64,000 nucleotides of DNA, taken from positions 1 through 64,000 of IMG/VR virus record IMGVR_UViG_3300037483_000361, one strand, 5' to 3'. The stretch's first letter is position 1; the number at the start of each line of letters is the position of its first letter. A model generated the notes under the pieces. The model saw nothing but the letters and a program-made list of their open reading frames with translations. It was not told the origin of the DNA and searched no databases. Positions 1,205-17,184 of the stretch are shown here, piece by piece. Position numbers and translations under genes: made by a program. This DNA is from a virus.

Positions 1205-1933
1205 CTATACGTGAGTCCACGATTTTCGTTGCAGAATACTCAATATGGTTTTTCTGTCTACTCCATACTTCTTTGCTAATCGTTGAAGTCCAAACTTGAA
1301 CGGAACATATTCTTCTCGTATGCTGACAACTTGTTTTTCAGTAAGTTTGGAGTTGACATGGCTAGAGCCGCGAACTCTAGTTCGTTTATAGTTCTCTCGC
1401 ACTTCCGATGAACAAACACACCCCAGTCGTTGAGTTTGCAATCGCTTCAACTGATCTGGATGAGTTTTATAGTGGAGAACGAGCGCCCTACGAAACTTTT
1501 GTTTATTTTTTGGAGATTGAAACCATGCTTGGATTGCTTTGGATAGATTTTTCTTGTGAGTTTCCGTTTTAGGGCGGCCTCGATGCGCATCTCCTATATG
1601 TTTCTTGTGCTCAATAGCATGAGGAATCCCCATCATATTAGGTGGTGCATCCGCTGTTGGGTTGATGTTATATAGAAGTCCCGAAACCCACCATTTATCC
1701 AAATGCTGTTGTTCTATTAGTAAAAGTTTGGTTCGAGAACATTGTTCTATACACTCCACACTAAATGCATCTTTTCCATATTTGTTCCATGCTGCTTGAA
1801 GATGAGGATTATCATGAGCATTGGTATTAAGTTTCCATTTATGAGTATACCAACGATGCTGCACATCATTGGCCGATCCGATGTAGAATTTCTTGCTTTT
1901 GGTGTTTCTAATATAATAGATGCCACAGCTCAT
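1205..1933 (-). CDS. Free-standing GIY-YIG homing endonuclease with NUMOD3-like repeats and C-terminal HTH
   Basis: CGIYYIRN...FYIGS motif, H..EHKK.I repeats and SKLTEKQV..IR HTH. Start moved to MSCGIY (GAGG RBS). Confidence 0.9.
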   Translation of the reverse strand: MSCGIYYIRNTKSKKFYIGSANDVQHRWYTHKWKLNTNAHDNPHLQAAWNKYGKDAFSVECIEQCSRTKLLLIEQQHLDKWWVSGLLYNINPTADAPPNMMGIPHAIEHKKHIGDAHRGRPKTETHKKNLSKAIQAWFQSPKNKQKFRRALVLHYKTHPDQLKRLQTQRLGCVCSSEVRENYKRTRVRGSSHVNSKLTEKQVVSIREEYVPFKFGLQRLAKKYGVDRKTILSILQRKSWTHV

Positions 1934-1984
1934 AAAACTACCTCTTGAAATGACCACACCTATACATAGTTCGTATTAGCATGA

Positions 1985-2039: not shown

Positions 2040-3767
2040 TTATAGGAGGGAAATTCCCTTAACCAAAATCTTACCGTAGAATTCCGGTCGGACAATCTTC
2101 TTCGCGTAGCGGGTTAGAACGCCCCTGCGCGGAGTAAAGTTGTCAGGATCGTAGACAAGCGGAGTCATTACGAGAGGAACATATGGCGCATATACAGCAC
2201 CGGTCTCTAGGAAGTTTGCTCCCTTGTAGCCAAGAAGGATGACGTTCGTCAACATATACGGGTTCTTGTAGACCGTATAGCGGTTCTGGAAGGAACCGAT
2301 CTGAGTCACGCCTGCTGCATACTTCATCTTGTCACCGTCAGTCTCGACCGTGAAACCAGGAATGGTTTCAAGAATCGTGGACACGTCCGGCGAGCAGACT
2401 AGGAAGTTTGCTCCACCACGCATGGTTAGCTGGTGAATCTTGTTGCTGACCTTCTGAATCTTCTGACCAAGCGTTTCAAACCATGTCTGGTTCGTCCATG
2501 CTTGACCAGCAAGTGTTGAACTTGCTGCGAACACACCATTAGTGAATACTTCACCAATTGTGGTTGACCAGAAATCAGTCGTTTGTGCGTTGATCATCAG
2601 CATGTCCAAAATCTCAAGGTCAATTTCGAGTGAGATATACTCGCTCAACATTGCCGTTAGCTCGGCCTCAGCGTCGATGCTGTGGTAAGCGTTAAGGTCT
2701 TGTGCCAATTCTGGCGTCCAGACAGCCTTCAACTTACGGGTCTTTGCAACGATTGGAATGGAACGAAGTTCCAAGTCAATCTGCGGAATACCCAACGAAG
2801 CCTGTGCTGTACCTGCATCATCAACAACTTCGGAGCGTGTATCTTCGAAGTCTCCACGAGTGGAGTCCGTCGGCTGACGGTGATAAACGACACTGGACAA
2901 TGCCTGTCCCAAATCTGCGATGAAAGTCACCCAATCAACGCCCTGTGAGGAACTGATATGCGTGAATTCAGGCAACCAACCAGTCAATGCGGTAAAGCCC
3001 GCGGAGACTGATCCAGTACCAGGAACGAATGCGCGGATACCTTCAAAGTCAGGACGAGTAAATGCGCTCATCGAAACTTGATATGCCATCAGGTTCGTTG
3101 CAAATGTACCTGCTGCTGGGTTGGTGATGAGTTCGTTATAGTTGACCGAAGCCGAATCAAGCGGTGTGCCTGCGCCGGCTGCTGTCGTTCCAGTCGAACC
3201 CGACAATGCAGTGCCAATAATGGTAAGTTCCTGATCGTTGATCGAATAGCCGAACTTACCGTCGCCGTATAGACCGCCCTGTGGGACGACCGATGCGGAT
3301 GGGAACATTGCTCCCTTGCTGCTCGTCTTGGTAATACCAAAGACGGAATCAGAGGTCGCGCGACCAGGCTTTGCACCGGATGCTAGACCACCGTACTTGA
3401 AGTCCATGAAGAAAATCAGGCCGGAAGGAAGGTTCATCGGCTGAATGCTGACGAACTCCTTAGCTGCGATTTCCCCAAAGACCTTTCGAACCAATGGAAG
3501 GGCTACGCCTGCCCACTGTTCGCCCGATCCTGCCGTACCGATACCGATACCAGCGGAGCTCGGATTAGTCGTTGTGCTCTCGTCGATGAGCTGACGGGCT
3601 TGGTTCTCTAAGAGAACAGCCATACCATGACGCTGTGCTTCGCCGTCTAGTCCCTCAAGTAGTCCTGTTGGGGTCCACTTGCTAACCAAACCACGAGTCT
3701 GCTCTAGGAGCGCTCGCTGAGGCGTCTGGGCTTCAGCCATCAACTGGCGGATGTTAATACCACTCAT
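2040..3767 (-). CDS. gp23: Major capsid protein, T4 gp23-like
   Basis: QPMNLPSGLIF, AKTRKLKAVWTPELAQDLNAYHSIDAEAEL, YAPYVPL and FTPRRGVLTRY motifs. Confidence 0.97.
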   Translation of the reverse strand: MSGINIRQLMAEAQTPQRALLEQTRGLVSKWTPTGLLEGLDGEAQRHGMAVLLENQARQLIDESTTTNPSSAGIGIGTAGSGEQWAGVALPLVRKVFGEIAAKEFVSIQPMNLPSGLIFFMDFKYGGLASGAKPGRATSDSVFGITKTSSKGAMFPSASVVPQGGLYGDGKFGYSINDQELTIIGTALSGSTGTTAAGAGTPLDSASVNYNELITNPAAGTFATNLMAYQVSMSAFTRPDFEGIRAFVPGTGSVSAGFTALTGWLPEFTHISSSQGVDWVTFIADLGQALSSVVYHRQPTDSTRGDFEDTRSEVVDDAGTAQASLGIPQIDLELRSIPIVAKTRKLKAVWTPELAQDLNAYHSIDAEAELTAMLSEYISLEIDLEILDMLMINAQTTDFWSTTIGEVFTNGVFAASSTLAGQAWTNQTWFETLGQKIQKVSNKIHQLTMRGGANFLVCSPDVSTILETIPGFTVETDGDKMKYAAGVTQIGSFQNRYTVYKNPYMLTNVILLGYKGANFLETGAVYAPYVPLVMTPLVYDPDNFTPRRGVLTRYAKKIVRPEFYGKILVKGISLL

Positions 3768-3794: not shown

Positions 3795-5165
3795 TTATTT
3801 AATACCTGCTAGCTTCTTGAATCGTGCTGCGAGATCAGCGCCTTCTGCCAAAATAGTCGGCGTGGATGGAATTGTTGATTCCGACTTCGGCTTACTACGT
3901 GGCTTCGTGCTACCCGCAACTCGTGATGCTAGTCCCTCGGTAATGGATCGCTTACGCGAAACCGGCTTACCTCGGAATGCTTCCGCGAGTGTTGAAAATA
4001 CCAACTTTGCTTCGCGAATGGTTGTTGCTCTGTCAAAGTTCTCTACAACACGCATCTTCTGACGAACGTCCATATTGTACGACTTGAACAATTTGTTCGT
4101 GTAGAGCAACTTCGCGTTAAGTAGATTCACTTCATTGAGCTTACTACGCAGGTATTTAACAGCGTCCCGGTATTCCTTCAGCTCACTTCGGAGCGATGTG
4201 ACTTGAGTTTCAAGTTCATCATCCTTTTCTTCGTCCTCAATCTCTCGCAGAATTTCTTCGAGGTCGATTTCATCTTCCTCTTCCTCACCTTCTGCTTCGG
4301 AGATCGGACCAGTTTGCTTCTTCGTGCCAGCGGTGAATGAAGACTTTTCAATAGCACCAGCCTTCTCTTCACCACCTTCATCTGCACCGTGTCCGTCTGC
4401 TGCATCTTCCATGACAGGTTCTTCCTCTTCCTCACCTTCCTCACCCTCGATGCCTGGCAAGCCTACTTCTCCTTCTGCTTCGCCGGCAATATCGAGAGGC
4501 TCTTCATCCTCTTCGGGCTCGTCGGTGATGTCCGCTTCAAGCTCACGGATGATGGTTTCGAGATCAAGGTCCCGACCTTCTTCATCATCTTCTTCACCTT
4601 CCAATCCTTCAATTCCAGCATCTTCGGTATCGAGTGTCTCTTCTTCGCCACCGAGTTCTTCGCCACCAAAGTCATCTTCCTCTTCATCGCCATCAAAAGC
4701 ACCCTCAGATACCTTACGGCCTGCTGGCTGCTCTAATCCTGCGTTTTCAATGTCAGAAGAATCTCGAACATTCGCTGCTGGCTCTTTAGTATCGGTTGTA
4801 CCGTACTTCTGAGTTGCTCGTGTTGCGATGCCTGAAGACTTTAGTTGTTCTGCATCAGTTTCTGCGGTATCGTCCACTTCTTCCTGAACGAATGAAGACT
4901 TCTCAACAGCATCGACATCAGTCTCGCCGCCGTCATCAGAACCATGAGCATCGCCCTTGACTGGATCATTGATCTCTTCGAGATCATCTTCATCGTCCAT
5001 ATTCATCTCGTCATCAGCTTCGTTCTTTAGTCTGTTTGACAGCATCGAAGTTAGATGCGGCGTAAATGCCTCTTCCAAAGCGGCCTTCGCGTTAGCAAGT
5101 GCTGTCTCTCGGACGGCCTTTGCGTCAGCAATGGCGTCTCGGAGTAGCTTGTCCTTTTTTGCCAT
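3795..5165 (-). CDS. Prohead core/scaffold protein (gp22-equivalent)
   Basis: Highly acidic with a C-terminal coiled coil, many x-x-E sites, and directly upstream of the major capsid gene. Confidence 0.8.
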   Translation of the reverse strand: MAKKDKLLRDAIADAKAVRETALANAKAALEEAFTPHLTSMLSNRLKNEADDEMNMDDEDDLEEINDPVKGDAHGSDDGGETDVDAVEKSSFVQEEVDDTAETDAEQLKSSGIATRATQKYGTTDTKEPAANVRDSSDIENAGLEQPAGRKVSEGAFDGDEEEDDFGGEELGGEEETLDTEDAGIEGLEGEEDDEEGRDLDLETIIRELEADITDEPEEDEEPLDIAGEAEGEVGLPGIEGEEGEEEEEPVMEDAADGHGADEGGEEKAGAIEKSSFTAGTKKQTGPISEAEGEEEEDEIDLEEILREIEDEEKDDELETQVTSLRSELKEYRDAVKYLRSKLNEVNLLNAKLLYTNKLFKSYNMDVRQKMRVVENFDRATTIREAKLVFSTLAEAFRGKPVSRKRSITEGLASRVAGSTKPRSKPKSESTIPSTPTILAEGADLAARFKKLAGIK

Positions 5166-5317: not shown

Positions 5318-5542
5318 TTAGTTCTTAACAACGCAACGACTACGATTCACGCTGACAACTGCACCAGAAGCTAGTTGAATGCGTACGTTTGGATGCGACA
5401 ACGATAGAACATGACCAATACCATGCGGTGTATCTACCTTATCACCGCGCTTGGGAGCAGACTCATTCAGTGAGACTCCGCTCTCCTTTAGTGCTTTGCG
5501 GACTTCTTCTCGAACGATCTCCCTTACTCTTGATTCTCGCAT
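5318..5542 (-). CDS. Small putative internal head protein (IVREEV leader, SH3/KOW-like domain)
   Basis: N-terminus VREIVREEVRKALKES; KRGDKVDTPHGIGHV beta-rich domain. Confidence 0.55.
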   Translation of the reverse strand: MRESRVREIVREEVRKALKESGVSLNESAPKRGDKVDTPHGIGHVLSLSHPNVRIQLASGAVVSVNRSRCVVKN

Positions 5543-5729
5543 TTTCTTCTCTCCTTCGGCGTTTAAACGCTTCTTGCTGTTTTAACTTGCGCCGTACAGA
5601 CGGCTTAACATGATATTCATGTCGTTTCAAATCTTGAAAAATATCTGCGCGCTTAACTTTATTTTTAAACTCTGCCATTGCTCGGTCAAGAGCTTCTTGG
5701 GTGGTGCCCTTCACTTCTACATACGACAT
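5463..5729 (-). CDS. rpsU: Phage-encoded ribosomal protein bS21
   Basis: V.V...EALDRAMAEFKNKV...DLKRHEYHVKPSVRRKLK matches the bS21 signature; it lies next to head genes as in known bS21 phages. Confidence 0.88.
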   Translation of the reverse strand: MSYVEVKGTTQEALDRAMAEFKNKVKRADIFQDLKRHEYHVKPSVRRKLKQQEAFKRRRREENARIKSKGDRSRRSPQSTKGERSLTE

Positions 5730-5784
5730 ATAAACCTTCACTTTCTCTATGGAGTCTTTCTATAACTATCTGCGTGATTACAGA

Positions 5785-6060: not shown

Positions 6061-7775
6061 TACTTTCGTACAGCCTTCAGTGCCAACATGGCTTCGCCGA
6101 CTGTCTTTGCTCCTGACTTGCGGAGAATGTCCTTGGCTCGGGCGTGCGTCAAACCAGTCTGACCACGAGCGAGTGCTGCGGGCGTTTTGACCGACTTGTG
6201 TGCCTGATAGTCCGATGGTGCCGGATTGACTTCGGGGATGACCGCTAGTTCATAGGCATCTCGACCGACCCACGCCAACTTTCCAGACCGCACCAATGCA
6301 TCGAGTGCTGTCTTGGCATCGGCAGGCTTGACGCCCAGCGTGCGAGCAACATCCCCACTGCTGACGGCATCCCCGTACTGCGCAGCGTGCTCGACCGCCT
6401 TGAGAACGTTCGAGTACTGCGGCGTGGATGGTGCCGGATTGGCCTCGGGAATGACGCTCTCGTGTGCATACTCAACCGCAACCACACCCGTTGGCGTTCG
6501 CATGATGTAATAGCCATTGCGACCAAAGCCCATTTTCAATGCTAACCGCTTTGCTGCACCCTCGGTTTCTTGCGGTTCCGTTTGACGAAGCTTTGGTTCT
6601 CGATGAATATACCCTTGGTTCTTCCGGGACCGGGCGCTCTTCTTTGATGACTTTGCTTCTTTCATTGTTGACCGAAGCGTAGCCAATCGTAATAGTCCAT
6701 CATCTACAGTTGAACCAAATGTTTTTTGGAGATGCTTAAACAAATCCATTCTCGTTGCGTTGGGATTACCCGATATGAACTTTCTTGCTGCACTGAGAAT
6801 ATCCATTCTTGACGGACCTGTGTCTGCTTCTCGGAGACCTTCTTTCTTTGACTCAAACGTCGGCGTGGGCTTGCCTCGCTGAACGGCTTGCCGACGGAGC
6901 TCCGAACGGCTTTGCACTCCCTTCTGCTTCTCTGCTGCGGCTTTTCGAATGCGATCCACATAATCCTCATACTCTTCTCCAGCTCGGCGAACCGGCGCGC
7001 CGATCTTTCGTGCAAGGTCATCCAATCGGGCGGCGGCCTGTCCTTCGGCGCCGGGCGTAGCTTCTTTAAACATTCCCGAGCGCGCTCCTGCGTAAGCCAA
7101 CTTGGCGACCTTCTTACCAGCTTTTGCTGCACCATGCTTTCTTGCCAAACTCTTTCTGAGCGCACGAAGGTTTGCTCCGGCGCTAGCGAGCTTCTGCATA
7201 CGAGTGGCTTCCTCTACGGGTTCTTCCTCATCAGGCTCTAACTCTTCCTTGGGCTGATTCGAGCTGCTGAATGGTTCCTGTTTCTTATCCCCGAGATTGG
7301 AGAGGTCTTCGTCCTTTGGACCTGCCAACTCGAAATACCGAGTCAAAACATTTCCCATGTCGTCATAAAGTGCTGATGCCCGTTGGTGCATTACATCTAA
7401 ATCTTCGGCAATCTTATTAAACTGTCCCGCATACTTTTTGAGTTCGCTCATGTTGCGAGAGATAGTATGCTTATCAAACCAATCACCGGCTTCTTGCATG
7501 ACGGTGGATTCGGCGAGTTCGGCAATTCGCGCAATCTCGGTTGCGATCTTGCGGAAGTTGCCCGCATCTCGAAGGCTTTCGCCGAGACGAGAGTAATTGG
7601 CGATCACCGAAACTGGATTTACTCCCATCTGCGGCTCAGCATCAATGTGTCGTTCGCCGGCATAGCCGCCGCGGTCAAAATCCTGTACATCATTGGATTC
7701 TACCGAGTCCGTGGCACTTCGTACTTTTTGTGAATAGCGGTTTGCGCCCTTCCCTGCCGCTGGATTCTGTGGCAT
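6060..7775 (-). CDS. Modular putative internal head polyprotein (includes a wHTH module)
   Basis: Located in the head cluster; short domains are separated by x-x-E-[AS] sites. Confidence 0.55.
   Translation of the reverse strand: MPQNPAAGKGANRYSQKVRSATDSVESNDVQDFDRGGYAGERHIDAEPQMGVNPVSVIANYSRLGESLRDAGNFRKIATEIARIAELAESTVMQEAGDWFDKHTISRNMSELKKYAGQFNKIAEDLDVMHQRASALYDDMGNVLTRYFELAGPKDEDLSNLGDKKQEPFSSSNQPKEELEPDEEEPVEEATRMQKLASAGANLRALRKSLARKHGAAKAGKKVAKLAYAGARSGMFKEATPGAEGQAAARLDDLARKIGAPVRRAGEEYEDYVDRIRKAAAEKQKGVQSRSELRRQAVQRGKPTPTFESKKEGLREADTGPSRMDILSAARKFISGNPNATRMDLFKHLQKTFGSTVDDGLLRLATLRSTMKEAKSSKKSARSRKNQGYIHREPKLRQTEPQETEGAAKRLALKMGFGRNGYYIMRTPTGVVAVEYAHESVIPEANPAPSTPQYSNVLKAVEHAAQYGDAVSSGDVARTLGVKPADAKTALDALVRSGKLAWVGRDAYELAVIPEVNPAPSDYQAHKSVKTPAALARGQTGLTHARAKDILRKSGAKTVGEAMLALKAVRK
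6214..6455. repeat. 29-bp imperfect direct repeat pair (VIPE[AV]NPAPS) at 6214-6242 and 6427-6455
   Basis: GATGGTGCCGGATTG is identical in both copies, which are 213 bp apart and in frame. Confidence 0.85.
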
Positions 7776-7811
7776 ATCTTTCTCCGTTTACTTTGGTATT
7801 CCTGCAATCAA

Positions 7812-9071
7812 TTAATTCTTCTTGCGTTCTGTTACTTTCTTCTTCCCAAACGGCTTTGCTTGCTTGCCCTTGAAGTTGGCGAGATTACCGGCTTCACGGA
7901 GCTTGCGTTCCTGTAGAACTTCGGTCACCTGACGACGGATGTATTCACGAAGTTTTGCGAGTTGTGGTCCTTTCATGTTATTTCTCTCCTCGGTTTCTAG
8001 GCCGCGTGGGTGCGTCCATGTTGCTGCATCTTTGTCGGAAATGGCCCCACTCCTTGCCAACATATTTATGTAGTCGTTCCATGCTTCTCTGCGCGCGGGC
8101 TTATCGGGAATTTTATTCTTCTCATATTGCATTTTGATTGACGGAAGAATCTCGCGCTTGAAGTCCCGCCATGCTTGATCCAGCGTCAAGGCATACGATA
8201 TATATGATCCAGCGGCTTCTTTCTTGACAGCGTTCTCCTTGAAATTTCCAACAGTAGTGGGCTTTACATGATATGTGCTCTTGAAAAACACGTTCTTCTC
8301 AATGGGCAACGCAACATATCGTTTTGCTCCGCCGGCGGCGCGCATCTTGTCAAGCTTAGCAAGAACCTCTTTCTTATGAGAATTGACCCACGCGATTGCT
8401 TCTTTCTCGTTTGTTGCTACTGATGTTGGAACATAATATCGTACCGTGCGATGGTCGTAGTATTTACCATCATAGATGTTTGCTGGAATATGGACGGCAA
8501 AAACTTGAGTATCTGCCTCAGCGATGACGGCTTCTTTCTTGACATTCTTGACTTCTTTAACGGGCGGCTCCTGGGCCTCGGACTGCGCTCGATAGGAACC
8601 TTCAATGATGTCCCCTAGAAACTCGGCCAATTCACTGTTGTACGTATCAATGGCCTGCATCGTCAAATCGGTCAACTTTTGAACCATTCGCCGAACAGGC
8701 GTTCCTTTAGCAAGACCATTAGAAATAGCAGCAACTATCTTTGCTTGTTGTAGTCCATCAGAAACTATAGCATGATATTTCTTAGGATTGGTAAATATAG
8801 CGGCATGATGAGCGTGCGCATCTTTCACTTCAGGAATAGCTCTCATAAGCTGCTGTGCTGCCGTGCTTTTGTTCAGACCCTCTTGTATGGCTGCTTCTTT
8901 CTTGACGTGCGCTGGCAAGCCCTTGCGAGGCGTTGCGGCGAAGTCCGTTGCCGACTTCTTCTTCATCGACCCGGCTGCCTTGGCAACCGCAGGACTGGCC
9001 GGCTTCGCACCTTTCTGTGTAGCATGAACCATGCCCATGAACTTTTGCTGTGCTTGGCTTTTTGCTGGCAT
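7812..9071 (-). CDS. Modular putative internal head polyprotein with N-terminal DUF3008-like domain
   Basis: PAKSQAQQKFMGMV...DFAATPRKGLP; three VKKEA linkers; C-terminal LREYIRRQVTEVLQE. Confidence 0.6.
   Translation of the reverse strand: MPAKSQAQQKFMGMVHATQKGAKPASPAVAKAAGSMKKKSATDFAATPRKGLPAHVKKEAAIQEGLNKSTAAQQLMRAIPEVKDAHAHHAAIFTNPKKYHAIVSDGLQQAKIVAAISNGLAKGTPVRRMVQKLTDLTMQAIDTYNSELAEFLGDIIEGSYRAQSEAQEPPVKEVKNVKKEAVIAEADTQVFAVHIPANIYDGKYYDHRTVRYYVPTSVATNEKEAIAWVNSHKKEVLAKLDKMRAAGGAKRYVALPIEKNVFFKSTYHVKPTTVGNFKENAVKKEAAGSYISYALTLDQAWRDFKREILPSIKMQYEKNKIPDKPARREAWNDYINMLARSGAISDKDAATWTHPRGLETEERNNMKGPQLAKLREYIRRQVTEVLQERKLREAGNLANFKGKQAKPFGKKKVTERKKN
8213..8906. repeat. Three in-frame direct repeats encoding VKKEA
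   Basis: CGGCTTCTTTCTTGACA at 8213-8229 and 8528-8544; its 14-bp core GCTTCTTTCTTGAC at 8893-8906. Confidence 0.85.
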
Positions 9072-9343
9072 TATTGTTTCCTCACTTGACTAAACCAATT
9101 CGACATGTTCAATCGCGCAATTTTGACTTTTTCGGATGCATCTATCAAGGGTCGAAGAAGAAGATTAGGATTGAACGGCTCCATTTTATTTCTTGGAATA
9201 GCTCGAATTTCTTCTTCTACTGTGCTGAGTATATCCTCAACCTTTTGCAAACGCTGCATCATATCACGCACATGAATTGGTGATGTGCCATCTTCATTGA
9301 GAACATGCTTGTTCTCAGTGAGAAACTTTTTGAGGTCGAACAT
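9071..9343 (-). CDS. Small putative internal head protein
   Basis: Leader MFDLKKFLTEN; TAATG coupling with its neighbours. Confidence 0.6.
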   Translation of the reverse strand: MFDLKKFLTENKHVLNEDGTSPIHVRDMMQRLQKVEDILSTVEEEIRAIPRNKMEPFNPNLLLRPLIDASEKVKIARLNMSNWFSQVRKQ

Positions 9344-9927
9344 TACCGAATCTCCACCAAAAAGTCATGGATAAGTGTATCTACTCGTGCCCACGGATTG
9401 CGCTTTGTGGGAATGATGGACTCATTGATGAATGCGCCTTGCGTTGATGGGTTGCTCACCACATCAAAACAGATGAGACTGAAATCCTCTTGAACTTCTA
9501 CCGTATCTTCTCCAAGTTCTTTGATTGAGCCAAGCCCACGGCTTGACACGCCCAAACGAATGTCGTTCTTCAACAGCTCTTTCAAGATGTTGCCCGACGG
9601 CGTAGACAAGATTTCCAGGGTGCCCATAAGATTCTCACCATCAAAATGCATCTCAGTAATGTTATGCGATACATTCTTCAAGTTGACAACAGGACTGTCA
9701 GGATGATCGAGCTCACCGAGCGCCCTACGATCACGGATAAAGTCGGTATACTTCTGTGCCTCACGCTGAAGAATTGAAAGAGGATAGATGCGTCCGTTCT
9801 GATTCTTTGCGTTGGCTCGCTGCAGCACCACATCCCGCAATACTACTGGACCACCCTTAGAAATTGCCTCAGTAATGAATTGACGATTGAAGTGCAATGG
9901 CGTATAGCCGTGCAATAGTTGTGTCAT
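9343..9927 (-). CDS. gp21: Prohead protease, T4 gp21-like
   Basis: NQNGRIYP, ALGELDHP, VSHNI, GVSSRGLGS and DVVSNPS motifs. Start moved to MTQLL (GAGG RBS). Confidence 0.95.
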   Translation of the reverse strand: MTQLLHGYTPLHFNRQFITEAISKGGPVVLRDVVLQRANAKNQNGRIYPLSILQREAQKYTDFIRDRRALGELDHPDSPVVNLKNVSHNITEMHFDGENLMGTLEILSTPSGNILKELLKNDIRLGVSSRGLGSIKELGEDTVEVQEDFSLICFDVVSNPSTQGAFINESIIPTKRNPWARVDTLIHDFLVEIR

Positions 9928-9940
9928 GGTCATCCTCTTG

Positions 9941-10570
9941 TTAGTTGTGCAGAATTCGAAATATGCGCGCGTCATCTGGTCCCGCTATAAGTTCATACAG
10001 AAATCTATTCGTATAGACAACGCTCGTTGCCTTTAACTGCACTGGGCTGAGAGAGTATGATGCGGCCAAGCTCGCCGAAGCAACCGCAGTAGCCCCATAG
10101 GCAATTCCAAAGAATTGGCCATTGTCGGGTGATGCGATGCCTGATACGGTGATCGACGCAGAACCAGATTCGACTGAGCCGCTGAGTAGAGTGAAACTTT
10201 GCGTTAGGGCATAGACTGTATTGCCAAGTGCAGCATCAATGTATACTGGCACGGTGATCGATGCGGTGCCGACTGAACCGGAGGCGGTCTCCCAATTTCC
10301 CGAAGCGGTCAGTGCAAACGATGCGGTAAATGTTCCGCCGCTATGAACCGAGCCGGTGACGGGAGCAGTGGTAACCGCAAAGGTGCCCGGCGTAGCAACA
10401 AGAGCAGTTGGGAACGCGAATGTTTTGGTTCGCGTCTCAATCTGTCCTGTGTTCCAACTGCGGGAACCGAATGTTTGATATCCACCAATTTGTGTGATGG
10501 CACTGGCCGTGACGGTCGCTAATGCAGCAGATAATGCGGTTTCACCAACAACTGTAAGTATTCCACTCAT
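9941..10570 (-). CDS. Ser/Thr/Ala-rich virion protein (possible head decoration)
   Basis: Beta-rich, low-charge sequence with many [ST][GA]S tripeptides, located in the head cluster. Confidence 0.5.
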   Translation of the reverse strand: MSGILTVVGETALSAALATVTASAITQIGGYQTFGSRSWNTGQIETRTKTFAFPTALVATPGTFAVTTAPVTGSVHSGGTFTASFALTASGNWETASGSVGTASITVPVYIDAALGNTVYALTQSFTLLSGSVESGSASITVSGIASPDNGQFFGIAYGATAVASASLAASYSLSPVQLKATSVVYTNRFLYELIAGPDDARIFRILHN

Positions 10571-10571
10571 A

Positions 10572-11327
10572 TTAGCCCCTCATGTTTCGGACAGTCGCCG
10601 CGATGCGATTAATCCGCCCTTCCATTTTCAGGAATGCGTTATTAGTTCGTTGCCACAAACCGCTATTAGGAACGCCCATTTCTTTCTTGAGGCGTGCACT
10701 TCGTTTAATGACTTGTTCCACTTCATGCAATTGCTTGTTGATTTCCGATATTGCCTTACCGATCTTCATTCGGGGTGACGCAGTTTCGTCATTGCGCCAT
10801 GCGTAGTATGGATCACCACCTTCTTGCACAGCCTTCTTGTCAGTTTCTCGGCGAACGCGGTTACTATCTTTCTTTGCATCTGCTTTGCGGCCATAGAACG
10901 CACCCTTGCCTTTCTTTGCGCCGGTATGTTCGGTTTCTTTGGCCTTGCCGGCTTCACTCAATTTACTAAAAACTTGATGAAGTGCTTGTTTTACATCATC
11001 GTAACTTGCATTAGTACTTAACTGTCGCGAACTTGGGTTGATTCCCTTGCTACTAAGGCTAGCCTCATATCCATTATATTGCAGTATCTTCACCAATGCT
11101 TCTGCTCTGTTTCGAGACATGTAAAACAAGTCGATATTACCCTCGCTGATTGTAGTTTTGACAGATTCGTTCGTCGGCTTGCTGCGTGCGCCCTTCTTCT
11201 TTTTCTTGCTCGTCGGGGCGCCTTCGCCCGAAAAAGCATACGGCGTAGCAAAGCCCGACACTGCTCCGGTGCCCGTCATCTCGTCAATCAACTCACGAAT
11301 CATCTCTTTGAGGTTTGATATTTTCAT
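10572..11327 (-). CDS. Putative internal head protein, modular
   Basis: Leader LKEMIRELIDE, then TGAVSGFATPYAF; internal ISEG, LSEA and VQEG sites. Confidence 0.55.
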   Translation of the reverse strand: MKISNLKEMIRELIDEMTGTGAVSGFATPYAFSGEGAPTSKKKKKGARSKPTNESVKTTISEGNIDLFYMSRNRAEALVKILQYNGYEASLSSKGINPSSRQLSTNASYDDVKQALHQVFSKLSEAGKAKETEHTGAKKGKGAFYGRKADAKKDSNRVRRETDKKAVQEGGDPYYAWRNDETASPRMKIGKAISEINKQLHEVEQVIKRSARLKKEMGVPNSGLWQRTNNAFLKMEGRINRIAATVRNMRG

Positions 11328-12351: not shown

Positions 12352-14271
12352 TTAATTTTCAATGTCGGCGCCTGCTGCGTTCAATCCTTCCTCGTCCATG
12401 TAGCTATTTTTCTTGCTTTCTGCAAGCAGTTGCTCCTCGTTCTTCTTGACTTCGCCGAGCTTCTTCGACAGAGACTTGACAAATTGCTTTAGTTCGAGCG
12501 ATTCACGGGCGAGACCCTTGCGGCGTCTGCCGAGTTCGCCGCCTTCCGGGTCGCGGTGAAGCGCCTTCTGGTTCTCCTTGCGACCGAACGGGTCGCGGCC
12601 GAGGTAGTGTCGGTCAGTCCCGAGTGCCGCACCCTCGCGCGGCCGGCCAACTTTTGCGTCGGCGATGACGCCTTCCTGCTCGGCCTCTGGCTCCGCTTCG
12701 GCCGAAGGGAGCCCAGAGAGGTCCGCCCCACCAGCGGGCTTCTCGTCTGCTCCGTGCTGCTCTTCGCCTGGGACGGCTTCGCCCGGCTGACCCTGCGTGC
12801 CTGCGGCGTTGGCTGGGTCTTCCCCACGCTCAATGGCCTGGAGGCGGAACAACCGCTTCTTGTCTCGAACGACTGCATTGCGCTGCTCTTCAACTTCATC
12901 TTCACTCATACCAAACACATTGTCGTATATCCAATCACTGCTGACCATATTGCTGTTCTGCATTTCGGTAGCAAGGCGAACACGATCCGACCACAACTGA
13001 ATCTTCTCTTGTTCGTAAATGGTCGATGGATTAGTTAAATCAAGACTGAAGTTGACCAACGATTCATCTGTGTGTCCTTGTGCAAACAAATGAATGATGG
13101 CAATCTTGGTTAGCTCTGACAGCACAATGCGCTGAATGCGTTCAATCGTTCGAGCGAACCGAACATCTTCTGCTGCCAATGTTGCTTTGCCGGCGATTTG
13201 CTCCTCATAACCAAGGAATGGGCGAGGCACCTTGAGCGAACCAATCATCTTGTTGCGCAGGTATTCTACGTCCTCAGTAGCATTGAAAGTAAGACCACTG
13301 AGGTTTTCTATCTGTGTGCCCGAGTCCCCACCGCGCACGGGCAGATAGAAGTCTTCAATGACATTCATTAAATTGAATTTGAGGTTGTAATCGCCGGTTT
13401 GTGGATCAATGAGAGGCGTCTTCTGCATCTTCTTGATGAGCCTCTCCATAAATGCATCAACCTCCAACGGCGGAAGGTTGCCAATGTCAACTTTGAAAAT
13501 ACGACGATCTGGCGCGCGCACAAGTCGATGGACCAACATTGCATCTTCCATGAGCTGCAACTGCTTCCATGTTCGACGAGCCGGCTCAATCATTGCCTTA
13601 CCATACGGCAAAAAGTTGCTGTCTGCCAATAGACGAAAATGCGCAATCTCGTAATTTTCAAATCGGTCACGAGGCGTTTGAACGCCTAGTGTCTGGAAAT
13701 AAACTTCATACGGATTCGCTGGATTCTCACCTTCAACTCGAATGGTATCATAGACGGAAAGCGGCAGGACATTGACAATACCATACTTCTCCGTAATCTC
13801 AAGAAACAGGAAGAAGTCTCCATACTTACACATGTTTCGAATCCACGGCCAAAGATTGAACTCAATGTTCAAGATGTCGTAGAAAAGATTGTGTAGAATC
13901 TCACGGATATTTTCGTCAGGAGACTCAATAACAAGAGATTCACCCATTTCAGATTGAATGGTGGTTTCGTCTGAATAAATGTCCAGTGCTGATGCGATGA
14001 TTGCGTCATTGTCCATAATATCATAATCACGGAACAACTGCAATCGGGCTCCCTGATACGCTAGACCATGTTCAGTTCTATTCGCCGTGTGGGGGCCGAA
14101 GTGCTGATAGTGGATTCTGTTGTATCGGTCGTAGAGAGTGCGGCTTGTAAATGCCTGCATACGACTAGTGTCAGCAACTTTGAGTTTGCTGCCGCCGACG
14201 TTGCGCACAATAACGTTTGTGCTGAACAGTCGCTTTAGTCTACGAAATAGGGATGTGCTTGGTGGTGCCAT
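12352..14271 (-). CDS. gp20: Portal protein, T4 gp20-like
   Basis: QLQLMEDAMLVHRLVRAPDRRIFKVDIGNLP, EDFYLPVRGGDSGTQI and LKVP motifs. Confidence 0.96.
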   Translation of the reverse strand: MAPPSTSLFRRLKRLFSTNVIVRNVGGSKLKVADTSRMQAFTSRTLYDRYNRIHYQHFGPHTANRTEHGLAYQGARLQLFRDYDIMDNDAIIASALDIYSDETTIQSEMGESLVIESPDENIREILHNLFYDILNIEFNLWPWIRNMCKYGDFFLFLEITEKYGIVNVLPLSVYDTIRVEGENPANPYEVYFQTLGVQTPRDRFENYEIAHFRLLADSNFLPYGKAMIEPARRTWKQLQLMEDAMLVHRLVRAPDRRIFKVDIGNLPPLEVDAFMERLIKKMQKTPLIDPQTGDYNLKFNLMNVIEDFYLPVRGGDSGTQIENLSGLTFNATEDVEYLRNKMIGSLKVPRPFLGYEEQIAGKATLAAEDVRFARTIERIQRIVLSELTKIAIIHLFAQGHTDESLVNFSLDLTNPSTIYEQEKIQLWSDRVRLATEMQNSNMVSSDWIYDNVFGMSEDEVEEQRNAVVRDKKRLFRLQAIERGEDPANAAGTQGQPGEAVPGEEQHGADEKPAGGADLSGLPSAEAEPEAEQEGVIADAKVGRPREGAALGTDRHYLGRDPFGRKENQKALHRDPEGGELGRRRKGLARESLELKQFVKSLSKKLGEVKKNEEQLLAESKKNSYMDEEGLNAAGADIEN

Positions 14272-15564: not shown

Positions 15565-17184
15565 TCAATCGAGCAACCACCGGAGATCTTCCGTATCATT
15601 GAGCCGCGTCGGGCCGCCCAACGGCATACGGTAGGGATCATTTACTGGCGATTGCGGCGAATAAATACCCTCATATTGAGTATGATGCGACATGTGATCA
15701 AGTGCTGTGCGCGTAAGCGCATCACTATGCTGCCGCATGCGCAACGCCGTGTCTCGAACCCACAGCGCGATAGACAGTGATATTACCAAGTCATCATTGT
15801 ATCCTTCCATTGCTTCTGAACGACTGCCTTTCCAAATGAAAACTTCTAGTTCTTCCAAAGTGCGTTGAGATTGAACGACAACAGCATTATCACGCATATA
15901 CTCATCCAACTTAGAGATAATAAGCGGCCGAGTACGAACAGATGTAGTAAACCCCGGAACCGATTTTCGCTCAAAGTAACGTCGTTTGGTGGTTCGTTGC
16001 CGTGGGTGCTTTGCATCGACAAAGTGCCAATCCTCTTCCATGTAGAATAGGTTCTTGTACCCTCGATCAATGGCGACTTGAAGAACAGACCAGCCTACCG
16101 TCGAGTTTTCAATAACAAGTAATGCGTCGTTGTATTCTGTGGCGATAGCAACGAGCATGGCACCAAACTCTTTCGTTCCGATCTTACCACGATATTCTGC
16201 CACCTGCGTCACGCTTTCCAATTCAATAACGTGAAATGCAGAATAGTCATTACTATCGCCCCGTGCTACGTCAGCAACTACCATATAGGCTTTGGTGGGA
16301 GTTGCATATTCCCACACCCACAAATTGTTGTCGAAGGCACGTTTTGCGATAGGTGGTTTCTCAAAGGTCTGACGATAGAATTGAATGATATCGCCTGGAA
16401 TGACGGTATTGCCGGAAGCGATGAAGTCGGCATCATGTTCCTGGCGAGCACCAATGTCACCCAATTGCTTGGTTTGTTCATCACGCCATACTTGATCACG
16501 TTCAGGATGAACAGCCCAATTCAAGAAGATTGGAAAAAAGTTATTTTCACCAACGCCAGCTGCGATCCATGTCTTATGGAAAAAGTTACCCATACCATTT
16601 GGCGTGCTAAGAATAATGCCTTTACCACCCGTCGAGAGTGTAGAAAATGCGGCCGTCCAGATGTCCTCGGCCCCATCAATAAACGCCCCCTCGTCAAGAA
16701 TGAGAAGAGAAAGTGACTCGGAACGGCCGGCGTCCGGGCTACTTGCGATAGCTTTGATTTGCGAACCATTGGAAAATGCTAGTGAAAGCTTATTATCTTC
16801 AATACAATCTCCTCGGAGCCATACTGGCAGGTTCTGGTGCATAACTCGAACTTTTGTGACCAAGTTCTTTGCTGTATCTTGTTTTGTAGCGATAACTAGT
16901 ACGTTTTGATCATTCGTAAACAGCATCAGCCATAACGCATACCCAGCCACCAAAGTTGATAGACCAATCTGTCTTGCTTTCAACACAATACTAAATCGAT
17001 GATCGAGGAAACCGTTCAAGGTTTCTTCTTGAAATTTGTACAGATTGAACGGAATTTTGCCGCGCAGAGGATGTTGAATTACGCAATACTTGCGCATGAA
17101 ATAAATCGGGTCAACAATACACTTCTTGTATTCCTTTTTGATAATATCACGCAACTGCGTTGTTTGTGAAGTTGGAGCAGTCAT
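15565..17184 (-). CDS. gp17: Terminase large subunit, T4 gp17-like
   Basis: KARQIGLST Walker A, LLILDE Walker B, STPNG, nuclease DVARG.DYSAF and NDDLV motifs. Confidence 0.96.
   Translation of the reverse strand: MTAPTSQTTQLRDIIKKEYKKCIVDPIYFMRKYCVIQHPLRGKIPFNLYKFQEETLNGFLDHRFSIVLKARQIGLSTLVAGYALWLMLFTNDQNVLVIATKQDTAKNLVTKVRVMHQNLPVWLRGDCIEDNKLSLAFSNGSQIKAIASSPDAGRSESLSLLILDEGAFIDGAEDIWTAAFSTLSTGGKGIILSTPNGMGNFFHKTWIAAGVGENNFFPIFLNWAVHPERDQVWRDEQTKQLGDIGARQEHDADFIASGNTVIPGDIIQFYRQTFEKPPIAKRAFDNNLWVWEYATPTKAYMVVADVARGDSNDYSAFHVIELESVTQVAEYRGKIGTKEFGAMLVAIATEYNDALLVIENSTVGWSVLQVAIDRGYKNLFYMEEDWHFVDAKHPRQRTTKRRYFERKSVPGFTTSVRTRPLIISKLDEYMRDNAVVVQSQRTLEELEVFIWKGSRSEAMEGYNDDLVISLSIALWVRDTALRMRQHSDALTRTALDHMSHHTQYEGIYSPQSPVNDPYRMPLGGPTRLNDTEDLRWLLD

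Follow-up and report, generated by a model that had tools for sequence, protein, structure and literature searches.

What does a short DNA repeat do when it stands three times, in frame, inside one gene of a viral head module? The question is raised by an open reading frame (ORF) at 7812..9071 on the minus strand of the virus record IMGVR_UViG_3300037483_000361 from IMG/VR. We call this ORF the target gene, and its product the target; the window is the whole stretch of DNA that was analyzed, positions 1 to 64,000 of the record (64,000 nt). A preliminary description of the window had read the repeat, translated as VKKEA, both as a protease site and as a recombination joint between cargo domains. 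We find that the repeats lie at the borders of unrelated modules, and we put at roughly one half the probability that the target, from an uncultured T4-like phage, is a basic internal head protein of mosaic build, putatively cut after Glu at its joints.

A threefold repeat in the target gene

The 14-mer GTCAAGAAAGAAGC has exactly three matches in the window, all on the minus strand (8215-8228, 8530-8543 and 8893-8906), a number that was reached in 0 of 100 dinucleotide shuffles, and no further copy is present elsewhere in the whole 96,880-bp record. The start-to-start spacings of 315 and 363 nt are each a multiple of three, and a longer 17-mer, TGTCAAGAAAGAAGCCG, is common to the copies at 8213-8229 and 8528-8544. 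All three copies are read in frame as VKKEA in the target ORF (joints 1 to 3, Table 1), and the three in-frame repeats of the preliminary description are thus confirmed by exact matching, shuffling and translation. VKKE was found in no other protein of the window, the nearest words being LKKEM, from a 251-aa protein, and IKKEY, from the terminase. The ATG of the target gene overlaps the stop codon of the upstream gene (TAATG). The purine-rich repeat was also considered as an internal ribosome-binding site, and this was rejected because a start codon follows none of the three copies.

Modules of the target protein

No full-length relative of the target was found among 1.84 billion cluster representatives scanned with HMMER, nor among 5.8 billion proteins. 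The HMMER scan returned separate sets of matches for residues 1-60, ~185-276, ~288-365 and 357-413, which include stand-alone proteins of 72-120 aa, and the homology borders lie at most ~10 residues from each VKKEA. These independent homology sets, with borders at VKKEA, bear out the earlier claim that the repeats separate unrelated domains. A tblastn search of 50,697 phage records gave no match to the whole protein or to the third module (M3), and the first module (M1) alone matched three cyanophages.

M1 is the DUF3008-like leader. It matches PHROGs 30268, 28725, 26015 and 10538 at E 1e-11 to 1e-13, and residues 1-60 match proteins that carry PF11450 (P0004, P0013, P0037 and others) at E 1e-11 to 1e-15 with 55-75% identity. 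The relatives of M1 number hundreds, many of them with PF11450, and occur as N-terminal modules, internal modules or stand-alone proteins of 72-108 aa. M1 taken together with the VKKE of joint 1 (residues 1-59) has an isoelectric point (pI) of 10.6, and all four VKKE-delimited pieces of the target are basic (pI 8.2-10.6). The internal proteins (IPs) of T4 are likewise basic.

The relatives of M3 are either stand-alone proteins of 96-120 aa or parts of proteins of 229-1230 aa. An AlphaFold2 (AF2) model of M3, built from an alignment of stand-alone relatives (A2), is a compact beta-beta-alpha-alpha-beta domain with a predicted local distance difference test (pLDDT) score of 81.5, disordered at the first 4 and last 8 residues. 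No meaningful fold relative of this model was found by Foldseek against the PDB (best E 2.2) or in a wide VIA-align search (best Z 3.7), and the ESM Atlas gave no usable feature matches for M3 or for the second module, M2. UvrC-like structure rows for M2 from the ESM Atlas were disregarded, as they derive from a low-confidence helical model. In relatives of module M4a, INE/A, VKE/A or LSE/A stands just before the module (here and below, the slash marks the putative cut after Glu). A global MAFFT alignment of stand-alone modules with the full protein (A1), in which M3 and M4a were misaligned onto M1, was discarded. When the modules were searched separately and M3 was modeled by itself, as the preliminary description had advised, each module had its own relatives and M3 folded alone, but no enzymatic or effector fold could be recognized. 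Given its independent domains, the recurring short site with Glu at P1 and a protease family specific for Glu, the predicted protein would be a protease-processed polyprotein in the general sense.

Within the last module, M4b, residues 372-383 (7947..7982) form an amphipathic helix with the pattern (K/R)-L-R-E-[YI]-[IV]-R-x-x-V-x-E. Helices of this type recur at the N-termini of head-module proteins or directly after DUF3008 modules; N-terminal examples are the products of 5318..5542 and 10572..11327 in the window, of 7171-8166 in the related locus L005, and the proteins P0138 and P0129. The recurrent helix might serve as a further element for targeting or for binding the scaffold. The KLREYIRRQVTE helix and M1 are alternative candidates for the capsid-targeting element.

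Turnover of modules among related phages

We compared 80 loci whose proteases are 52-73% identical to that of the target phage. They share one gene order: portal, 298-aa gene, 251-aa gene, protease, a variable slot, the N-terminal module (N-module) of the 571-aa protein, S21, scaffold and major capsid protein (MCP). The content of the slot, which holds the target gene in our phage, varies: ~30 loci carry a gene led by DUF3008, followed by unrelated bodies of 129 to 600 aa. The slot differs also in L004, L005 and L006, which have proteases 72-73% identical to that of the target phage. In L004 it holds a 395-aa protein with a DUF3008 variant ending GLPAKKEAVVAEK, in L005 DUF3008 is absent from it, and in L006 DUF3008 is followed by two tandem repeats.

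Modules are also re-fused. In L007 and L050, DUF3008 is the fusion partner of the N-module of the 571-aa protein (..AGDWFDKHTISRN..ALYDDMGNVL..); in P0130 the partner is M4a, with GLSEA on both of its sides. Linkers of the ESVNE type occur in other relatives, for example L058, P0148 and P0207. The proposal that modules are gained and lost is therefore upheld by their swapping and re-fusion among related phages and by the hypervariable slot at the side of the protease. On these sequence comparisons, the cassette-built architecture with rapid module turnover is well supported.

Conserved Glu at the borders of DUF3008 modules

VKKE is the native C-terminal end in 29 of 228 DUF3008 modules (e.g. 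GLPAHVKKEN, GLPGHVKKEG and GLPNKVKKEA). The C-terminal border as a whole reads GLPx[HK][VI]-x-E in 102 of 191 cases, with a Glu to Asp ratio of 102:2, and [VI]KKE in 31. In internal DUF3008 copies, Glu is aligned with the initiator Met of the N-terminal copies in 123 of 132 cases (E-K-A-V-S versus M-P-A-K-S), and Ile, Leu or Val occupies P3 in 119 of 132, so that these copies follow [ILV]-x-E, the cutting rule of T4 gp21. The ratio of Glu to Asp at the internal borders is 123:1 at P1, as against 33:30 at P2. The protein P0145 has VKKE-A-KAVS as the junction between two DUF3008 modules.

An S77 protease is encoded in all five tested records with such polyproteins (140-357 kb), compared with 0 of 14 control genomes. 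A homologous module is present in a virion: ORF93 of the cultured cyanophage S-SCSM1 is a 69-aa protein consisting of DUF3008 only and annotated as a virion protein, and the virion proteins of this phage were identified by mass spectrometry of CsCl-purified particles (PMC9602691). Cleavage after Glu is plausible in view of the border statistics, the co-occurrence with S77 and the virion proteome member, and cutting by the neighboring protease is probably the best-supported mechanism.

The cultured Synechococcus phage S-SZBM1 encodes a DUF3008-led protein of 708 aa, gp194 (L085, 7001-9124), with MKKE55, LKKE426, KKKE520 and LKKE535. Its internal ITYREFIAE/G nearly equals the capsid targeting sequence (CTS) of T4. 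Jumbo-phage proteins of ~600 aa (P0004, P0010, P0012 and relatives; L096-L125, 140-357 kb) carry KIE/EKAVS before an internal DUF3008, and after it a CNECGMTEGSCEH motif rich in Cys and stretches of GRGRPRK that resemble AT-hooks. In the literature searched we found no mention of DUF3008, and no title or abstract that describes such prohead-protease polyprotein chains.

Weighing the cleavage reading

The T4 protease gp21 cuts after Glu with Leu or Ile at P3, that is, at L/I-x-E (PMC9026906; PMC5694885). Several observations weigh against the target being an internal head protein cut at its joints. VKKE is not a canonical T4 site, because the P3 residue of V-K-K-E is Lys. Near joint 3 no canonical [ILV]-x-E was found, only NFKE/N. 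The leader is a DUF3008-like domain of 55 residues, unlike the 10-residue CTS of the T4 IPs and Alt, and the target N-terminus MPAKSQAQQKFMGM has its first Glu at residue 59, with no leader of ~10 residues ending in L/I-x-E. Residues 3-56 of M1 align with positions 1-57 of the 57 in Pfam PF11450 (DUF3008) at 19.1 bits (E 0.0014), below the gathering cut-off of 24 bits, and for this reason M1 is named DUF3008-like. The full-length single-sequence AF2 model, used for secondary structure only, is uninformative on the fold (pLDDT 43.5), so that M1, M2 and M4 may still form a single compact fold. Finally, Glu might be conserved at the module borders for a reason unrelated to cutting. The earlier claim that the repeat is itself the cleavage site consequently stands in part: Glu joints, a Glu-specific protease and the border statistics fit it, but VKKE departs from the T4 rule.

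The same misfit to L/I-x-E would suit an uncleaved multi-domain head or late protein that works as one chain, in which VKKEA is a favored flexible or helix-capping linker spread by duplication. Lys/Glu-rich linkers are common, and in the single-sequence AF2 model a helix begins at joint 1. However, the strong preference for Glu over Asp at the DUF3008 borders, set against the even ratio at the adjacent position, is hard to reconcile with a passive linker, and the tight linkage to S77-encoding genomes and the position of the gene among prohead genes are as hard to explain on this reading. We consider an uncleaved chain possible and rather unlikely.

Cutting might instead take place at canonical sites beside the repeat (IQE64/G, VKE173/V, IAE186/A and perhaps FKE279/N), with VKKE having another role such as contact with DNA or scaffold. 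Canonical I-x-E sites do stand five residues past joints 1 and 2 (AAIQE/G and AVIAE/A), and joint 2 also has PPVKE/V. The end of the DUF3008 module of L004, GLPAKKEAVVAE/K, likewise follows the pattern KKEA-x-[IV]-x-E; the MCP and a CTS-like leader in the head module obey the T4 rule; and giant-phage propeptides have redundant clustered sites (PMC9026906). Yet VKKE closes many DUF3008 proteins that lack a canonical site in its vicinity, e.g. GLPNKVKKEALKTLIAKYG, and P0145 has VKKE-A directly before KAVS, where others have I-x-E. Cutting confined to the neighboring sites seems quite unlikely to us.

DNA identity and recombination at the repeat

In a further reading, the identical repeats of 14-17 bp are themselves recombination joints for in-frame gain and loss of modules. 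The 14-mer is identical in its three copies, with the identity reaching 17 nt in two, and the spacings are multiples of three, all of which agrees with this; a deletion between copies would drop M2 or M3 in frame. In T4, deletion between short direct repeats is classical, and an in-frame loss of M2 or M3 by this route would be possible in principle.

The preliminary description had stressed that the copies are identical even at synonymous positions. This is correct for the 14-mer in all three copies, but the repeat holds only four synonymous sites, and the identity goes only weakly beyond codon-pair bias. KK is written AAG-AAA in 43% of pairs, and KKE is written AAG-AAA-GAR in six of seven cases in the window and in four of four in gp194 of the cyanophage S-SZBM1; elsewhere in the window, identical words of four residues have the same DNA in 3.3% of pairs. 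For a repeat chosen post hoc, three copies that encode the same amino acids would agree in DNA with a probability of ~0.004 from codon-pair usage and ~0.01-0.02 from the bias of the KKE triplet. This low value counts in favor of recombination joints, whereas the near-constant spelling of KKE counts against them, as do the conserved residues right after the motif (A, I and E in linkers 1 and 2), which are written in different codons.

Comparative evidence weighs against recombination at the repeat. No close ortholog for mapping breakpoints was found among the 1.84 billion representatives. An exact search of IMG/VR with the 17-mer gave 10 matches, approximately the chance number by our own estimate, mostly in unrelated coiled-coil proteins and none at a comparable junction in the head module of a related phage. 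The protein P0152 aligns with two stretches of the target, residues 1-12 at 92% identity and residues 356-417 at 73%, and so resembles a variant produced by deletion or expansion; the breaks fall at residues 12 and 356 and not at VKKEA. The locus of P0152 was not found in viral or metagenome contigs. With P0152 broken elsewhere, the 17-mer unshared and the DNA identity marginally above codon bias, we do not follow the earlier claim of recombination at the repeat, and we hold this reading to be improbable.

Two of the IMG/VR contigs, 3300032073_000096 (L087) and 3300025168_011553 (L094), encode GVKKEAVIDDE on the 17-mer plus further bases. The carrier is a repeat protein (MELAPKGKG...KLYAGYGK.EGAGEEN units), and the fetched flanks showed no homologs of head-module genes.

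More improbable still is a component of the prohead core or scaffold whose fragments are expelled at maturation: the gene does lie between protease and scaffold, where T4 has core genes, and cleavage reduces T4 gp22, gp67 and gp68 to small fragments (PMC5694885), but the target is basic while the scaffold-like protein is strongly acidic, its slot is hypervariable, unlike conserved core genes, and a DUF3008 protein is kept in S-SCSM1 virions.

The head module around the target gene

The genes of the head module (Table 1) are arranged on the minus strand in the order terminase, portal, three genes without assignment, S77 protease, 90-aa gene, target gene and the gene for the 571-aa protein, followed by small genes, among them that of a bS21 homolog, and by the genes for an acidic scaffold-like protein and the MCP. 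The protease, identified by PF03420, is separated from the target gene by the 90-aa gene only, in agreement with the earlier statement that the two lie two genes apart. At residues 183-186, near its C-terminus, the protease has a conserved canonical site, GAFINE/S, also present in L004 and L005, which recalls the C-terminal self-processing of T4 gp21.

Table 1. Features of the target gene and of the surrounding head module
Feature	Residues	Position	Strand	Evidence or remarks
Mosaic basic protein (target), 419 aa, 46.7 kDa, pI 9.9		7812..9071	-	
M1, DUF3008-like leader (MPAKSQAQQKFMGM...GLPAH)	1-55	8907..9071	-	Pfam/PHROG matches
Joint 1, VKKEA	56-60	8892..8906	-	followed by AIQE64/G
M2, predicted all-helical, orphan	61-176	8544..8891	-	weak partial matches only (P0172, P0182)
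Joint 2, VKKEA	177-181	8529..8543	-	within PPVKE/VKNVKKE/AVIAE/A
M3, alpha/beta domain (VHIPANIYDGKYYDHRTV...EKNVFFK)	182-281	8229..8528	-	homology ~185-276
Joint 3, VKKEA	282-286	8214..8228	-	preceded by NFKE/N
M4a, phrog_336-like (ALTLDQAWRDFKREILP...PARREAWNDYINML...HPRGLETE)	287-362	7986..8213	-	homology ~288-365
M4b, amphipathic helix KLREYIRRQVTEVLQERKL and basic tail	363-419	7812..7985	-	homology 357-413; 73% identity to P0152
Terminase		15565..17184	-	
T4-type portal protein		12352..14271	-	PF07230, E 1.1e-66
S77 (T4 gp21-type) prohead serine protease		9343..9975	-	PF03420, E 4.5e-23; phrog_207, E 1.9e-51
90-aa gene, T4-CTS-like leader MFDLKKFLTE/NK		9071..9343	-	leader layout
Neighboring modular protein, 571 aa		6060..7775	-	two VIPE[AV]NPAPS joints
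bS21 (ribosomal protein) homolog		5463..5741	-	phrog_21469, E 8e-7
Acidic scaffold-like protein		3795..5165	-	position and composition; conserved across relatives
T4-type MCP		2040..3767	-	phrog_138, E 1.6e-71

The CTS of T4 is MKTYQEFIAE (PMC8442874), with roles described for its residues 4, 7, 8 and 10 (PMC9026906). The leader of the 90-aa protein has a layout in common with it, with Phe as the seventh residue, Leu or Ile as the eighth and Glu as the tenth. Leaders of the form M(T)FD[ILY][KR]KFL[TAK][ED] are present in six small proteins with wholly divergent bodies, and all six genes flank a prohead protease. Apart from 9071..9343, these genes belong to the two closest relatives, in which five of the six proteins are encoded (L004 5519-5992, 6588-6902 and 6924-7352; L005 6579-6809 and 6819-7181). 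Since CTS-like leaders with unrelated bodies flank the protease, the slot beside it looks like a locus for internal proteins.

The two joints of the 571-aa protein are encoded by a 29-nt repeat with 90% identity (6214-6242 and 6427-6455). When the MCP is aligned to mature T4 gp23*, the first mature residue falls at ~60, beside a predicted propeptide cut at LIDE63/S, which fits the T4 rule because it is an L/I-x-E cut after Glu (PMC9026906; PMC5694885). The bS21 homolog keeps its position in the head modules of L004, L005, L006, L016, L039 and L050. Directly downstream of the MCP gene lies a homing endonuclease of the GIY-YIG/HNH type (1205..1957, minus strand; phrog_314, E 7.5e-31).

Proposed processing and its significance

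In the reading that we favor, three to four small modules, each passed independently between related phages, would stand behind a DUF3008-like leader, and VKKE/A would be the native C-terminal border of DUF3008, copied to two other junctions. The chain would co-assemble into the prohead, and the adjacent S77 (gp21-type) protease would then cut the three flexible linkers after Glu, whether in VKKE or in the canonical I-x-E or V-x-E sites packed around it. Four basic peptides of ~6, 13, 12 and 16 kDa would remain inside the capsid. We infer the packaging of the target, its cutting and any function after ejection from the evidence above. The suggestion that the modules are injected effectors, made in the preliminary description, drew on analogy, and we find no support for it, as none of them has a recognizable enzymatic or effector fold.

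DUF3008 may thereby be given a working role as a virion-packaged module, whose borders would be written in the cutting code of T4-type head proteases. If cutting is true, it would provide a route by which T4-like and jumbo phages quickly gain and swap small internal head proteins, a class that in T4 includes anti-restriction factors, as well as a natural template for packing several foreign peptides into one capsid. A wider reading, which we find doubtful, is that DUF3008-led chains are widespread, evolvable capsid cargo of T4-like and jumbo phages, released by S77 proteases and delivered together with the DNA, with the joints as preferred points of recombination. Cargo turnover would then be quick, in an arms race with host defenses, and the prohead would take up any small module that stood between joints ending in Glu. 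The cultured cyanophages with homologs, S-SCSM1, S-SZBM1 and S-WAM1, are experimental entry points.

Comparison with known systems

The target resembles IPI, IPII, IPIII and Alt of T4 in being a basic, non-conserved protein with a conserved leader and a variable body, in a phage with a Glu-cutting S77 protease, and its context is of the T4 type, with an S77 protease (PF03420), a portal protein (PF07230) and a capsid protein (phrog_138). It differs from the T4 IPs and Alt in having several modules per chain and a repeated joint, which is V-K-K-E and not L/I-x-E. Unlike the T4 CTS, which is expelled, the homolog of the DUF3008 leader in S-SCSM1 stays in the virion. As to the leader, residues 3-56 align to the whole profile of PF11450, a family without a described function, and the other profiles matched are PHROGs 30268, 28725, 26015 and 10538.

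The cleavage motifs of giant phages are S/A/G-x-E or A-x-E (PMC5694885). The V-K-K-E joints of the target, with I-Q-E, I-A-E and V-K-E nearby, differ from these motifs, and the target has no sequence relation to the giant-phage proteins. In the giant-phage literature compared, we found no report of small modules being shuffled like cassettes around a single repeated joint. The target is nevertheless similar to the inner-body and ejection proteins of phiKZ, 201phi2-1 and SPN3US in its several Glu sites putatively cut by a gp21-related protease, the proteins of those phages having long propeptides with redundant clustered sites. The likeness to giant phages extends to the presence of DUF3008 polyproteins in the S77-encoding phage records of 140-357 kb.

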